Shown: positions 49,497 through 58,353 of the stretch, one piece after another
Layout of the letters: each line of letters starts with the position of its first letter
How positions within the stretch are numbered: position 1 is the first letter of the stretch
NCBI RefSeq assembly: GCF_965641715.1
Contig: NZ_OZ282453.1
DNA: 64,000 bases
Source: Escherichia coli
Lineage (GTDB): Bacteria; Pseudomonadota; Gammaproteobacteria; Enterobacterales; Enterobacteriaceae
Reading direction: 5' to 3' (one strand)
Made by a program: the position numbers and the translations under genes
The notes under the pieces: model-generated
Told to the model about the DNA's origin: nothing
Databases searched by the model: none
What the model saw: only the letters and a program-made list of their open reading frames with translations

Positions 49497-51149
<1,653 letters not shown>

Positions 51150-51169
51150 GTAAAAAAGTTAGAACGGCA

Positions 51170-51200
51170 ACGCGTACCCAGGGTACGCGTTGTTTGTCTG
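51170..51200 (+). terminator. Hairpin between pyrG and eno (possible partial terminator)
   Basis: aacgcgta-cccaggg-tacgcgtt stem-loop followed by gtttgtctgg. Confidence 0.4.
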
Positions 51201-51221
51201 GAGTTTCAGTTTAACTAGTGA

Positions 51222-52535
<1,314 letters not shown>

Positions 52536-52554
52536 GACTGACTTTATCTGATTT

Positions 52555-52586
52555 AAAAATGCCAGCCTCCGGGCTGGCGTTTTTTA
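52555..52586. terminator. Bidirectional intrinsic terminator shared by eno (+) and the convergent TPM/LemA operon (-)
   Basis: aaaaat-gccagcc-tccg-ggctggc-gttttttat: GC stem flanked by an A-run and a T-run. Confidence 0.75.
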
Positions 52587-52594
52587 TGGTTGAG

Positions 52595-53488
52595 TTACCA
52601 GCGACCGGACGCGCCGCCACCGCCAGAAGAACCGCCCCCGCCGCTAAATCCGCCGCCACTTGAGCCTCCACCGGAAGAGGATGAAGAAGAACCTTTTCTT
52701 GAAGCTCTATCTTTACTGAGTTTTTTGTATTTGGCGCGTAGCTTTTTATTGACGATAAGCCAAAAAATAACCAGTGGTACGATCGCAAAAGGCGTTAACA
52801 TACCGCAGGCAACGATTAAATTGGTCCATGGTCCTGGCTCGGCAACATAGAGGAATACCATCCCGTAAATGGCGCCAGTGAGAGTGATCCAGGGTAAATT
52901 CGACGGATCGGTAAAAACAATAAAATATGAAAGTACCGCCAGCAATATAATTACAGCAAGCGATAATGGAATAGGGGGATTGATACTGTAATAATCCCCC
53001 CTGTCTTCCGGTAATTCACCATTCAACAGAAGCGCGCCGATATTTTCGCTTGCCAGTGTTAATCCACCCATCAGGTCGTCACTTTTGAAGGCAGGGATCA
53101 ATATATCCCTGATAATCTTCGCCGCTTGCAGGTCGGTTACCACCCCTTCCAGCCCGTAGCCAACCTCAATACGAACAGCATGATCCTCCCTGGCAACCAG
53201 AAGTAAAATACCATCGTTTCTCTGCTTATCTCCCAGTTTCCAGCTATCAAAAACCCTTGTAGCATATTGTTCAATGGAATCGTCTCCGGTGGACGGCACT
53301 ACTAATACAGCGACCTGCGCCCGTGTTTTATGTGTAATATCCTGCAGTTGCTGTGTCAGTGATTGTTGTTCAGACGTGCTTAACGTACCAGTAATATCGG
53401 TCACCTGTTGGCGCAGCTCCGGCACAGCAATTTGCTGGGCAAGCCCGGGAAGGCTCCACAAAGCAAGTAGAATAAAGATTAAGCGCAT
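52595..53488 (-). CDS. TPM-domain membrane protein, YgcG family, paralog 1 (promoter-distal)
   Basis: ORF track 52595-53500 begins at a non-ATG codon; likely ATG start at MRLIFILLALWSLPGLA (signal peptide); TPM fold motifs (LVVPSTGDDSIEQYATRVFDSWK, DGILLLVA, RIEVGYGLEG); C-terminal TM segments then Ser/Gly tail ...GGGSSGGGGASGRW. Confidence 0.8.
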   Translation of the reverse strand: MRLIFILLALWSLPGLAQQIAVPELRQQVTDITGTLSTSEQQSLTQQLQDITHKTRAQVAVLVVPSTGDDSIEQYATRVFDSWKLGDKQRNDGILLLVAREDHAVRIEVGYGLEGVVTDLQAAKIIRDILIPAFKSDDLMGGLTLASENIGALLLNGELPEDRGDYYSINPPIPLSLAVIILLAVLSYFIVFTDPSNLPWITLTGAIYGMVFLYVAEPGPWTNLIVACGMLTPFAIVPLVIFWLIVNKKLRAKYKKLSKDRASRKGSSSSSSGGGSSGGGFSGGGGSSGGGGASGRW

Positions 53489-53493
53489 TACGA

Positions 53494-54642
53494 TCACCAA
53501 CGGCCGGATGAACCGCCGCCTCCTGAAGAACCGCCACCACCGCGGAAAGAATTCCTCGACGAAGAGCGAGAATGAGCATTACGATTCCCCGTTTTCCTGT
53601 TGCTTTTTTCTCCTGACCCCAGCTTAAGATTGCCAGTAAATTTGGCCACAATGATCAGCAGAACGATGCCAGCAATGGTTATTGGGCCGATAAAATGATC
53701 AATTAACCCAATAATTGTTGAGATGAATGCAATATCTTTATTACTGGCGAACACCAGGCACCATCCCACAATAATTATCAGCATCACGACAAACAATGAA
53801 TTTCGTCCTGATTCACGAACCTGCGGAGTCTTCTTTTGTTTTTTCACTTTAGCGTTTTTATTTTTTGGGGCCAGCATCATAGGAAATACGCGGCACAAAT
53901 TAAAAACTACCGCGAGACGCTGCTTGCAGGTTGTTGCTAACAATAAACTAAAACAAACGACCGATACCCGCCGAATGATGACATCGTCCTGAAAGGAGAA
54001 AAACCAGACCATAGGGGTAATCATCGATATCATCCATATGCCACGCCGTGGGCGGCTGGCAAATCGCCAGAGGACAACGATGGCAACGATCATCAGCAGT
54101 GTCCAGGCAAGACATGGCAGCGAACGTTGCGGATTAGCAAACAGATGATTGGCTAAAGCATCCAAAGGGCTAAGGTTCGCTTTGATATGGGTAAACTGTG
54201 CGATGCTTTCAATTCCGCCCGTTAATCCAGCAAAGAGATTGTTTTTTTCGAATTCTGGCTGCATATGGTAACGAACAATTTGCGCAGCTTGTTCCGGCGG
54301 CAACATCTCTTCCAGTCCATGTCCAATCTTCATTGACGCCAGCCCTTCCGGCCATACGACGAGAATTAAGATACCTTCGCCATATCGCTTCTCTCCAACG
54401 GGTTTCCAGTGATATACCCCGTATCTCTGCGAGGCTGCAAGTTTAATGTTTTTGCCCCCTGTGGTCGGCGTAACCAACACGGCCACCTGGAAGTGGTTTT
54501 GCTGCTCGAGAGTCTGTAATTGTTGAGTTAAAGCAGTTTGTTCTTCTGTCGTTAATGTCCCGGTTAAGTCAGTCACTGAAGGCAATCGTTCAGCGAATAC
54601 CTGAAAACCGCATAGCATCAGAAGTAAGAGAAAAATACGCAT
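53494..54642 (-). CDS. TPM-domain membrane protein, divergent paralog 2 with long polytopic C-terminal region
   Basis: 382 aa; signal peptide; TPM-like N-terminal domain; several hydrophobic segments; tail ...RGGGGSSGGGGSSGRW; 5-nt gap to paralog 1 start. Confidence 0.75.
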   Translation of the reverse strand: MRIFLLLLMLCGFQVFAERLPSVTDLTGTLTTEEQTALTQQLQTLEQQNHFQVAVLVTPTTGGKNIKLAASQRYGVYHWKPVGEKRYGEGILILVVWPEGLASMKIGHGLEEMLPPEQAAQIVRYHMQPEFEKNNLFAGLTGGIESIAQFTHIKANLSPLDALANHLFANPQRSLPCLAWTLLMIVAIVVLWRFASRPRRGIWMISMITPMVWFFSFQDDVIIRRVSVVCFSLLLATTCKQRLAVVFNLCRVFPMMLAPKNKNAKVKKQKKTPQVRESGRNSLFVVMLIIIVGWCLVFASNKDIAFISTIIGLIDHFIGPITIAGIVLLIIVAKFTGNLKLGSGEKSNRKTGNRNAHSRSSSRNSFRGGGGSSGGGGSSGRW

Positions 54643-54656
54643 ATCAATTCCTTTTG

Positions 54657-55550
54657 TTACCAGCGCCCGGAAGCGCCACCGCCACCAGATGAACCGCCAC
54701 CACCGCTGAAATTGTCATTGTTGAATGAAGAGGATGACGATGATGAATAGTGGGAGGAAGAATTGCTTCTTGTATGGCGTGATGGCTGGTTGACATCACG
54801 CATCAAATCCCGAACTTTTTTGCCGAAGGGGGTAAAAGCGATGGCGACAGCCAGGAACGGTGTGGCGAAGCAGAGTAATGTTGCGAGTACTCCCCAGCTT
54901 CCGCTGAAGCCTGCTATAGGTAAAACAAAGGCCAGTACAATAGCTGCGAAGCAAATTACTCCCAGCGTTTTGATATATCCTCTGGCAGAAATAAACGTCA
55001 GTACTATCGCCCAGACTAACAATGCCCACCAACCGCTAAAGGGCAAAGGGTGATCGGTCGGTGTTATCGTTGCTAAATTATTCCCCGTAAGACGACTTTC
55101 AATATCGCTGATCCCCTTTTGTAAACCGCCAGCCAGGTCGCCTTTTTTAAATGCAGGAATAATACTGTTGCGAATAATTTTCCCGGACTGTGCATCCGTA
55201 ATAATACCTTCCAGCCCGTAACCGATTTCAATACGCACGGTATGATCCTGCCAGGCGACTAACAGTAGAACGCCATCATCACGGTCTTTATCACCCGGTT
55301 TCCAGCTATCGAATACCCGCGTTGCGTACTGCTCGATGGTTTCATCGCCTGTTGTATCAACCACTAACACGACCAACTGTGCGTGGTTTTTTTGCGTCAG
55401 GGCTTTAATCTGGTTGGTCAGGGTGTTTACTTCGCTGTTTGTTAATGTGCCGGTTAAGTCATTCACATACTTGGGGGATTCAGGTACTGGAATTTGTGTG
55501 GCAAACACAGATGAACAGAAGAAAGCCATAAGGAAGATAAAATTTCGCAT
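54657..55550 (-). CDS. TPM-domain membrane protein, YgcG family, paralog 3
   Basis: ORF track 54657-55580; likely start at MRNFIFLMAFFCSSVFA (55550); shares IEQYATRVFDSWK and RIEIGYGLEG blocks with paralog 1; tail ...SGGGGSSGGGGASGRW. Confidence 0.8.
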   Translation of the reverse strand: MRNFIFLMAFFCSSVFATQIPVPESPKYVNDLTGTLTNSEVNTLTNQIKALTQKNHAQLVVLVVDTTGDETIEQYATRVFDSWKPGDKDRDDGVLLLVAWQDHTVRIEIGYGLEGIITDAQSGKIIRNSIIPAFKKGDLAGGLQKGISDIESRLTGNNLATITPTDHPLPFSGWWALLVWAIVLTFISARGYIKTLGVICFAAIVLAFVLPIAGFSGSWGVLATLLCFATPFLAVAIAFTPFGKKVRDLMRDVNQPSRHTRSNSSSHYSSSSSSSFNNDNFSGGGGSSGGGGASGRW

Positions 55551-55563
55551 AGAACTTCCCCGC

Positions 55564-56184
55564 TTAATGAGCATTAGCATTCTGGCTAAAATCTATTGTT
55601 GGGGCTTTACTTACTGCGGCGACATCATCCGGTAAATAATTTTTCTTTGGCGTGTAATCCATGACCTTTGCGGTTAATACAGCGGGGAATTTGCGGATAG
55701 TGACATTATATTGTTCAATGGCTTTAATATATCTTCCTCGCGCAACGGCAATTCTATTTTCACTTCCTTCGAGCTGTACCATTAAGTTTTGATAGAGCTC
55801 TTGAGCCTTTAACTCAGGGTAACGCTCACTAATTATCGTTAACTGACCGAGAGTGCGAGTCACCTGCGCCTGGGCCTGTTGCCAGGCTTGTAATTTTTGT
55901 GCATCTCCGGGAGCTTGCTGAAGATCGCTGCTGGCGCGATTAGCCTGGCTACGAGCCAATGTTACGGCTTCCAAAACGTCTTTTTCATGGTTGGAATAAC
56001 CTTTAATACTGGCGACAAGATTAGGAATAAGATCGGCGCGACGTTGATATTGATTTAATACCTCAGACCAGGAGGCGTTAACCTGCTCATCATAGGTTTG
56101 AATATCGTTATATCCACAGCCTGATAAATTGAAAATAAATATAATTACGATGAATATCCTGAGCATGTTTAAATCCTTTTTCAT
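55564..56184 (-). CDS. lemA: LemA-family lipoprotein
   Basis: 206 aa; lipobox NLSGC; LemA blocks QRRADLIPNLV, ERYPELKA, GSENRIAVARGRY; stop lies 13 nt upstream of TPM paralog 3 start. Confidence 0.8.
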   Translation of the reverse strand: MKKDLNMLRIFIVIIFIFNLSGCGYNDIQTYDEQVNASWSEVLNQYQRRADLIPNLVASIKGYSNHEKDVLEAVTLARSQANRASSDLQQAPGDAQKLQAWQQAQAQVTRTLGQLTIISERYPELKAQELYQNLMVQLEGSENRIAVARGRYIKAIEQYNVTIRKFPAVLTAKVMDYTPKKNYLPDDVAAVSKAPTIDFSQNANAH

Positions 56185-56338
56185 TAATTCCTTAAAACAT
56201 AATACGCCGCTTCATTTTATTCTTTATGATCTAATGCACTTTTTGCCTTAAACCTGCCTGTAACAGAATGTTAATAAGACATGATTGTTGCGGCAGGATC
56301 TGCAATAATTAACAATTATCCACTTCACAGAGAATGCT

Positions 56339-57010
56339 ATGCAGTACCCGATTAACGAGATGTTCCAGACCCTGCAAGGTGAGGGTTACTTTACCGGCGT
56401 CCCCGCCATTTTTATTCGTTTACAGGGATGCCCGGTTGGCTGTGCCTGGTGCGACACCAAACACACCTGGGAAAAGCTTGAGGATCGGGAAGTCTCCCTT
56501 TTCAGCATTCTGGCGAAGACCAAAGAGAGTGATAAGTGGGGGGCGGCGAGCAGTGAAGACTTGTTGGCTGTCATTAGTCGCCAGGGATACACCGCGCGGC
56601 ATGTGGTGATTACGGGTGGTGAGCCTTGCATTCATGATTTGCTACCACTGACTGATCTGCTCGAAAAGAACGGTTTTAGCTGCCAGATCGAGACCAGTGG
56701 TACTCATGAGGTACGCTGTACACCGAATACCTGGGTTACCGTATCGCCAAAGCTGAACATGCGCGGCGGCTATGAAGTGTTGTCACAGGCACTGGAGCGA
56801 GCCAACGAAATCAAGCACCCAGTGGGACGCGTACGTGATATTGAAGCACTGGATGAACTTTTGGCGACGCTGACCGATGATAAACCGCGAGTCATTGCAC
56901 TGCAGCCGATTAGCCAAAAGGATGATGCCACACGTTTGTGCATTGAAACCTGCATTGCGCGTAATTGGCGTTTGTCGATGCAAACCCATAAATATTTAAA
57001 TATTGCCTGA
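56339..57010 (+). CDS. queE: 7-carboxy-7-deazaguanine synthase (radical SAM)
   Basis: 223 aa with CPVGCAWC cluster motif; recognised as QueE/YgcF. Confidence 0.9.
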   Translation: MQYPINEMFQTLQGEGYFTGVPAIFIRLQGCPVGCAWCDTKHTWEKLEDREVSLFSILAKTKESDKWGAASSEDLLAVISRQGYTARHVVITGGEPCIHDLLPLTDLLEKNGFSCQIETSGTHEVRCTPNTWVTVSPKLNMRGGYEVLSQALERANEIKHPVGRVRDIEALDELLATLTDDKPRVIALQPISQKDDATRLCIETCIARNWRLSMQTHKYLNIA

Positions 57011-57348: not shown

Positions 57349-58353
57349 GAGTTCCCCGCGCCAGCGGGGATAAACCGGGCGACCGGCAGGCGGCCTATGC
57401 GTTTTTCACGAGTTCCCCGCGCCAGCGGGGATAAACCGGGGCATTAGAATAACTTAAATGGAAAAAGAAAGAGTTCCCCGCGCCAGCGGGGATAAACCGG
57501 CCTTATCTCTGCTTGGATTCTCTGCTGATGTGAGTTCCCCGCGCCAGCGGGGATAAACCGCGGCGCACACGTTGTATTTGTGCTGCCTATGCGAGTTCCC
57601 CGCGCCAGCGGGGATAAACCGCCCACCAGCGCGTTTTTTGCCGGGGCCATAGTGAGTTCCCCGCGCCAGCGGGGATAAACCGGCAATGCTCGTACGCCGT
57701 CTCACTCCGCGTGAGAGTTCCCCGCGCCAGCGGGGATAAACCGCGGGGGCGCGGGGTGTGGACGCATTCACAGCAGAGTTCCCCGCGCCAGCGGGGATAA
57801 ACCGTATATGCAGTGCTGACAGACCGGGGGGCGCAAGAGTTCCCCGCGCCAGCGGGGATAAACCGGCAACGCAGGAACCGCAGGCGGTTCGTCATCTGAG
57901 TTCCCCGCGCCAGCGGGGATAAACCGCTTGCCGCGCCAGGGTATTTTTGTGTGGTCGTGAGTTCCCCGCGCCAGCGGGGATAAACCGTCCGCAACAACTC
58001 AGAGAACCAGACACCAAGCGAGTTCCCCGCGCCAGCGGGGATAAACCGTTTCGCCGCCGGGAAAATTTATATTAACGTTGGAGTTCCCCGCGCCAGCGGG
58101 GATAAACCGCGAAGCACGTCGGGGACCGTAAGGCGTTTGAAGAGTTCCCCGCGCCAGCGGGGATAAACCGCAATCCACGCCGAAGCGCTGGAAATGGAAA
58201 AAGAGTTCCCCGCGCCAGCGGGGATAAACCGTTTACCTGCTCGGTGATATCGTCCTGCAAATCGAGTTCCCCGCGCCAGCGGGGATAAACCGGGTACAAA
58301 AGAGGCCCCATTCTGGCAGGGCTCAAGTTCCCCGCGCCAGCGGGGATAAACCA
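57349..58353 (+). CRISPR. Type I-E CRISPR array: 17 repeats of 29 bp, 16 spacers of 32 bp
   Basis: Repeat GAGTTCCCCGCGCCAGCGGGGATAAACCG with exact 61-bp period from 57349; terminal repeat degenerate (AAGTTCCCCGCGCCAGCGGGGATAAACCA, 58325-58353); leader at the 57349 end sets + orientation. Confidence 0.97.

Follow-up and report, generated by a model that had tools for sequence, protein, structure and literature searches.

The 59-bp gap between the enolase gene eno and a convergent lemA-TPM operon in Escherichia coli contains one palindromic hairpin. Taken as a whole, it is likely the conserved Rho-independent terminator of the pyrG-eno transcript, with a weaker use from the lemA-TPM side. This reading is carried by the structure of the hairpin, its conservation and covariation across related loci and the 3' end mapped for eno in K-12, all of which are established here or in published data. 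We are highly confident that the hairpin is the intrinsic terminator of pyrG-eno, already mapped in K-12. For the opposite direction, its sequence features suggest that it probably terminates the lemA-TPM operon as well, but less efficiently.

The hairpin in the eno-TPM gap

The window, i.e. the whole 64,000-nt stretch of E. coli chromosome analyzed here, carries relA-mazEFG-pyrG-eno, followed by the convergent lemA-TPM-TPM-TPM operon, queE and a CRISPR array (Table 1). Pfam searches identified Enolase_N/C in eno, LemA (E 9e-49) in the first gene of the convergent unit and TPM_phosphatase in the three others (E 3e-41 to 2e-21). Since these four genes are tightly packed, separated by 13 and 14 nt or overlapping by 4 nt (GTGA), they are predicted to form one operon. 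In agreement with the preliminary description, eno and the last TPM gene converge on a gap of 59 bp (52536–52594), bordered by stop codons at 52535 and 52595–52597. The GC stem between an A-run and a T-run reported there (52555–52586) was recovered letter by letter: from 5' to 3' the sequence consists of aaaaa, t, GCCAGCC, tccg, GGCTGGC, g and tttttt (52555–52585). This perfect stem is the sole terminator-like structure in the gap.

Table 1. Coordinates of the eno-TPM hairpin, its parts and the neighboring genes in the window.
Feature	Position	Strand	Remarks
eno (enolase) CDS	51237–52535	+	stop TAA 52533–52535; ORF list, Pfam Enolase_N/Enolase_C; annotated in E. coli ES5 and K-12
eno 3' UTR, about 51–53 nt	52536–52588	+	ends in T-run; from K-12 3' ends via gap-free alignment
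A5 run	52555–52559	both	encodes UUUUU U-tract of the − strand terminator; would pair with the U-tract once eno RNA is released
Palindromic hairpin GCCAGCC-tccg-GGCTGGC	52561–52578	both	perfect 7-bp stem, 6 GC
Stem arms	52561–52567 / 52572–52578		loop tccg 52568–52571 (4 nt)
Polymorphic base	52579		G in window; A in K-12 and most E. coli
T6 run	52580–52585	+	U-tract of the eno terminator
Predicted 3' end of lemA-TPM transcript	52552–52556	−	5–9 nt past stem; from intrinsic-terminator geometry
Last TPM-domain gene, about 300 aa	52595–53500	−	stop TAA 52595–52597, 16 nt from stem
Second TPM-domain gene, 382 aa	53494–54642	−	stop overlaps next start (GTGA)
First TPM-domain gene, about 297–307 aa	54657–55580	−	14-nt gap with Shine-Dalgarno sequence before next gene
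lemA, first gene of the operon	55564–56184	−	

The symmetric arrangement is rare by chance. A scan for perfect 7-bp stems containing 5 or more GC pairs, closed by a loop of 3–8 nt and flanked by no fewer than 5 A among the 8 preceding and no fewer than 5 T among the 8 following positions, returned exactly one match in the 64-kb window, namely the hairpin in the eno-TPM gap. Dinucleotide-preserving shuffles (n = 100) contained a mean of 0.03 such sites per window, and any site at all in 3/100. As RNA, the core hairpin reaches −14.9 kcal/mol on the + strand versus −13.0 on the − strand. A + strand 36-mer folds at −21.3 kcal/mol (z = −6.2; 0/200 shuffles as good) and the − strand RNA at −15.9 kcal/mol (z = −3.6). 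A consensus terminator scan reported the hairpin on the − strand only. We take the absence of the + strand to be a scanner artefact, because the scan adds G-U and A-U pairs to the stem, so that the T-run is absorbed and no tail is left.

At the polymorphic position, the G of the window gives a U-G wobble in the + RNA and a C-A mismatch in the − RNA. As it lies outside the core stem, this allele should have little effect. It is a minority allele in E. coli, and an exact match to the 59-nt gap occurs in at most 95/5426 genomes.

The interval between eno and queE is strain-variable (52595–56184, with a breakpoint near 52676). The form with lemA and three TPM genes is found in 766/5426 complete E. 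coli genomes; most others, including K-12, carry yqcG-ygcG instead. Homology of the two forms stops within the part of the last TPM gene that encodes the glycine-rich C-terminus, and the final ~80 nt (~27 codons) of this gene are common to K-12 ygcG; hence, the terminator and these last codons belong to both forms. The three TPM paralogues share near-identical C-terminal tails, GGGGSSGGGG(A/S)SGRW (− strand 52598–52650, 53497–53550 and 54660–54710), and such repeated GC-rich 3' ends could be recombination points for cassette exchange. The first TPM gene, an annotated pseudogene in strain ES5, is intact in the window. Downstream of queE, the CRISPR array (57471–58171) shows the E. coli type I-E repeat GAGTTCCCCGCGCCAGCGGGGATAAACCG with a 61-nt period; many perfect stems in the window-wide count come from its repeats.

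Conservation of the hairpin and the lemA-TPM direction

Related loci were gathered with the enolase C-terminus pattern GRKEIKGQA*, resulting in 89 loci, mostly from Enterobacteriaceae. A hairpin follows eno in about 80 of them, and the order A-rich run, GC hairpin, T-run occurs 20–30 nt after the gene in nearly all loci. Two main hairpin forms were observed, TGCCAG(C/T)C...G(G/A)CTGGCA and CCCGC...GCGGG. In the first form, compensatory changes affect 7/13 pairs, for example C-G to U-A in 8/21 sequences. None of 500 shuffles reached 7/13 pairs, and slid controls gave 0–1 such pairs; the percentage of paired cells is circular, as the sequences were chosen by a hairpin finder. The compensatory changes thus appear to keep the pairing of the eno hairpin, not its sequence.

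The genes found beyond this hairpin differ between loci: an SDR-like gene in 30 and an RpiR-type regulator in 12 loci, both convergent, or a co-directional queE (12), with convergent TPM genes in Escherichia only (5 loci). The T-run is near-invariant (about 6 of 6 T) and the A-run less conserved; in the Escherichia lineage L021, whose neighboring TPM gene is convergent, the A-run is degraded (TTTGATAA). On average, the A-run contains 4.58 A of 6 in convergent loci (n = 53) versus 4.43 in co-directional queE loci (n = 21). Since it is equal in both contexts, there is no sign of adaptation to a convergent partner, and the A-run appears to be a property of the eno terminator rather than an adaptation to the TPM operon. 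Judged by this comparison, selection acts visibly on the eno direction, and the symmetric shape is older than the TPM genes and does not depend on them.

The same observations speak for a terminator that works one way. Here, the hairpin would end eno only, with the A-run lengthening and stabilizing the eno hairpin, and lemA-TPM transcription would end by collision with eno polymerases or by Rho acting on untranslated RNA antisense to eno. The − strand is indeed the weaker one: beyond the lower hairpin stability, the tail past the stem is AUUUUUAAAU, and its U-tract AUUUUUAAA, shorter than in the eno direction, has only five U followed by AAA. A d'Aubenton-Carafa-type score, computed with modern energy parameters, was about −6 for the − strand and +14 for the + strand; it provides a rough ranking of + above − only. 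Furthermore, for the ygcG/TPM strand no 3' end is listed in the accessible tables of four data sets (PMC10687069, PMC6131387, PMC7815308 and PMC12207403), which is probably due to low expression in the exponential cultures used. A sigma-S RNA polymerase ChIP peak is located in the queE/ygcG intergenic (promoter) region of K-12 (PMC4447067).

Against a one-way terminator stands the sequence of the − strand itself. A 7-bp stem with 6 GC pairs followed by AUUUUU fits the usual criteria for intrinsic terminators, and the T-rich tail was found by the scan on this strand. Symmetric terminators of such shape are generally active in both orientations. Only 16 nt separate the TPM stop codon from the stem, and as the gap offers no other terminator-like structure, the TPM operon would have no alternative before running antisense into eno. 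Altogether, we regard a strictly one-way terminator as rather unlikely and favor the conserved eno terminator with a weaker use from the lemA-TPM side.

Besides that, unrelated genes (SDR-like, RpiR, MocR-like, TPM and queE) abut the eno hairpin 5–36 nt downstream across the compared loci (L003–L091), which suggests that the eno terminator is a recurrent boundary for gene-content change in Enterobacteriaceae. A more far-reaching interpretation would see it as a fixed two-sided insulator beside a recombination hot spot, selected to block antisense transcription into eno and borrowed by incoming genes. It is based on the differing cassettes within 5–36 nt and on an A-run that is kept even where no gene converges; we consider it doubtful. 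In two loci the eno terminator looks disrupted, by an insertion inside the hairpin in Salmonella enterica subsp. arizonae (L075) and by loss of the T-run right after the stem in Klebsiella indica (L036). These would represent natural tests of life without the eno terminator.

The mapped 3' end of eno and the proposed mechanism

In K-12 MG1655, the gap between eno (b2779) and ygcG (b2778) spans 2906584–2906642 and is identical to the window at 58 of its 59 bases; in the gap-free alignment, the sole difference is an A instead of the G at 52579. Published maps place the end of the transcript at this site. By SMRT-Cappable-seq, the pyrG-eno transcript ends at 2906592 under two conditions (PMC6131387). 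The TRS analysis of RNAtag-seq data assigns eno a 3' terminus of class 'Primary' at 2906591, with a hairpin of −21.7 kcal/mol, a 53-nt 3' UTR and an R (1 − local readthrough) of 0.984–0.998 (PMC10687069). Both ends correspond to ~52586–52588 in the window, in or just past the U-tract and 7–9 nt beyond the stem, where intrinsic termination would place them. Thus, of the proposed termination on both strands, the eno half is confirmed by 3'-end mapping in K-12; for the TPM direction it remains plausible by sequence, with no ygcG-strand end in the accessible tables. The suggested scope for antisense effects by readthrough from eno is unlikely to be large, since termination or processing at the K-12 site reaches about 99%.

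Other resources added little. The bicyclomycin-based table of Rho termination (PMC7815308) lists no region in 2906xxx, an absence from a list and not a direct test. The curated Term-seq lists of the same study give no 3' end in 2906xxx on either strand. As they lack even the eno end, which two other data sets map, absence there carries little weight either way. The TERMITe supplements contain no entry for eno or ygcG, and a literature search on ygcG, eno and terminator retrieved no paper.

Upstream of eno, the pyrG-eno spacer (51150–51236) holds a strong hairpin at ~51166–51196 (GGCAACGCGTACCC...GGGTACGCGTTGTT). Its K-12 3' end at 2907978–2907980 has an R of only 0.33–0.53, which makes it a leaky internal terminator tuning the pyrG:eno ratio. 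K-12 Term-seq further shows an abundant, Rho-dependent 3' end at 2909626–2909630, just inside the pyrG ORF and flagged 'uORF' (PMC7815308). It corresponds to ~49548 in the window, 36 nt into pyrG, and suggests premature termination control of pyrG.

The eno direction shares with canonical Rho-independent E. coli terminators the GC-rich 7-bp stem, the 4-nt loop, the U6 tract, the site just after the stop codon and, in the K-12 orthologue, the RNA 3' end 7–9 nt past the stem. It differs from them in nothing material, whereas the opposite direction deviates by its five U followed by AAA. With bidirectional terminators, the site has in common the short gap between convergent genes and a single palindromic hairpin with an A-run on one side and a T-run on the other, and the predicted 3' ends of the eno and TPM transcripts would overlap by about 30–36 nt. 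A classic example of a bidirectional intrinsic terminator between convergent genes is tonB/P14. Overlapping bidirectional terminators between convergent E. coli genes were documented by SEnd-seq as a prevalent class (Ju et al. 2019, as cited in bioRxiv 10.1101/2022.10.23.513370). The eno-TPM site differs in that the mapped end lies on the eno strand only and the second is a prediction. According to the same preprint, many of the bidirectional SEnd-seq sites do not resemble intrinsic terminators and are proposed to depend on polymerase collisions; the eno-TPM hairpin, in contrast, looks intrinsic on both strands. Its closest counterpart is the K-12 eno-ygcG terminator, where eno likewise lies upstream and the convergent TPM-domain gene ends in the same ~27 codons; this terminator differs by the A at 52579 and by its convergent unit, yqcG-ygcG versus lemA and three TPM genes.

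Based on these data, we propose the following course of events. A polymerase coming from eno would transcribe the GC stem-loop and pause on the U6 tract, upon which the hairpin (−14.9 kcal/mol) would form and the transcript be released 7–9 nt past the stem. In the free eno RNA, the upstream A-run would pair with the U-tract, resulting in a 13-bp terminal hairpin (−21.3 kcal/mol), and this A:U-extended structure should shield eno mRNA, which is abundant, against 3' exonucleases. Owing to the palindromic sequence, a polymerase coming from lemA-TPM would meet the same stem, followed by the weaker AUUUUUAAA tract, which probably stops most, but not all, of the low-level transcription. Escaping polymerases would collide head-on with dense eno traffic.

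Alternatively, the hairpin might be an RNA-stability or processing element, with the eno 3' end resulting from exonucleolytic trimming to the stem-loop and true termination occurring further downstream. RNAtag-seq and long-read 3' ends cannot tell termination from processing, and PMC10687069 itself uses the phrase 'termination or processing'; the high stability of the 13-bp terminal hairpin also fits this view. However, the mapped end falls within a canonical U-tract at the distance given above, 1 − readthrough is about 0.99, and downstream there is only the coding region of the convergent gene, with no other + strand terminator. We therefore regard trimming as very improbable. A chance palindrome, REP-type repeat or protein-binding site unrelated to termination can practically be dismissed, given the 0.03 sites expected per window, the single copy per E. 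coli genome, the lack of a match to any Rfam family (51000–57000, E up to 1) and compensatory changes that preserve pairing and not sequence. In particular, a repeated extragenic palindrome of the REP/BIME type is ruled out, as 4868 E. coli genomes each contain the hairpin sequence exactly once.

Significance for eno and its convergent neighbors

A symmetric hairpin terminator between convergent genes is a common and well-known arrangement, the eno terminator was already known, and nothing about it departs from known biology. Beyond annotation, the finding therefore matters little: it fixes the 3' boundary of eno and provides a candidate 3' boundary for the lemA-TPM operon. Here, a strain-variable TPM cassette re-uses a terminator that is older than the cassette itself. 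As the A-run is equally conserved where the neighbor of eno is co-directional, caution is advised with such sites in general: a symmetric order of A-run, hairpin and T-run alone does not prove that a terminator serves its convergent neighbor or evolved to do so.
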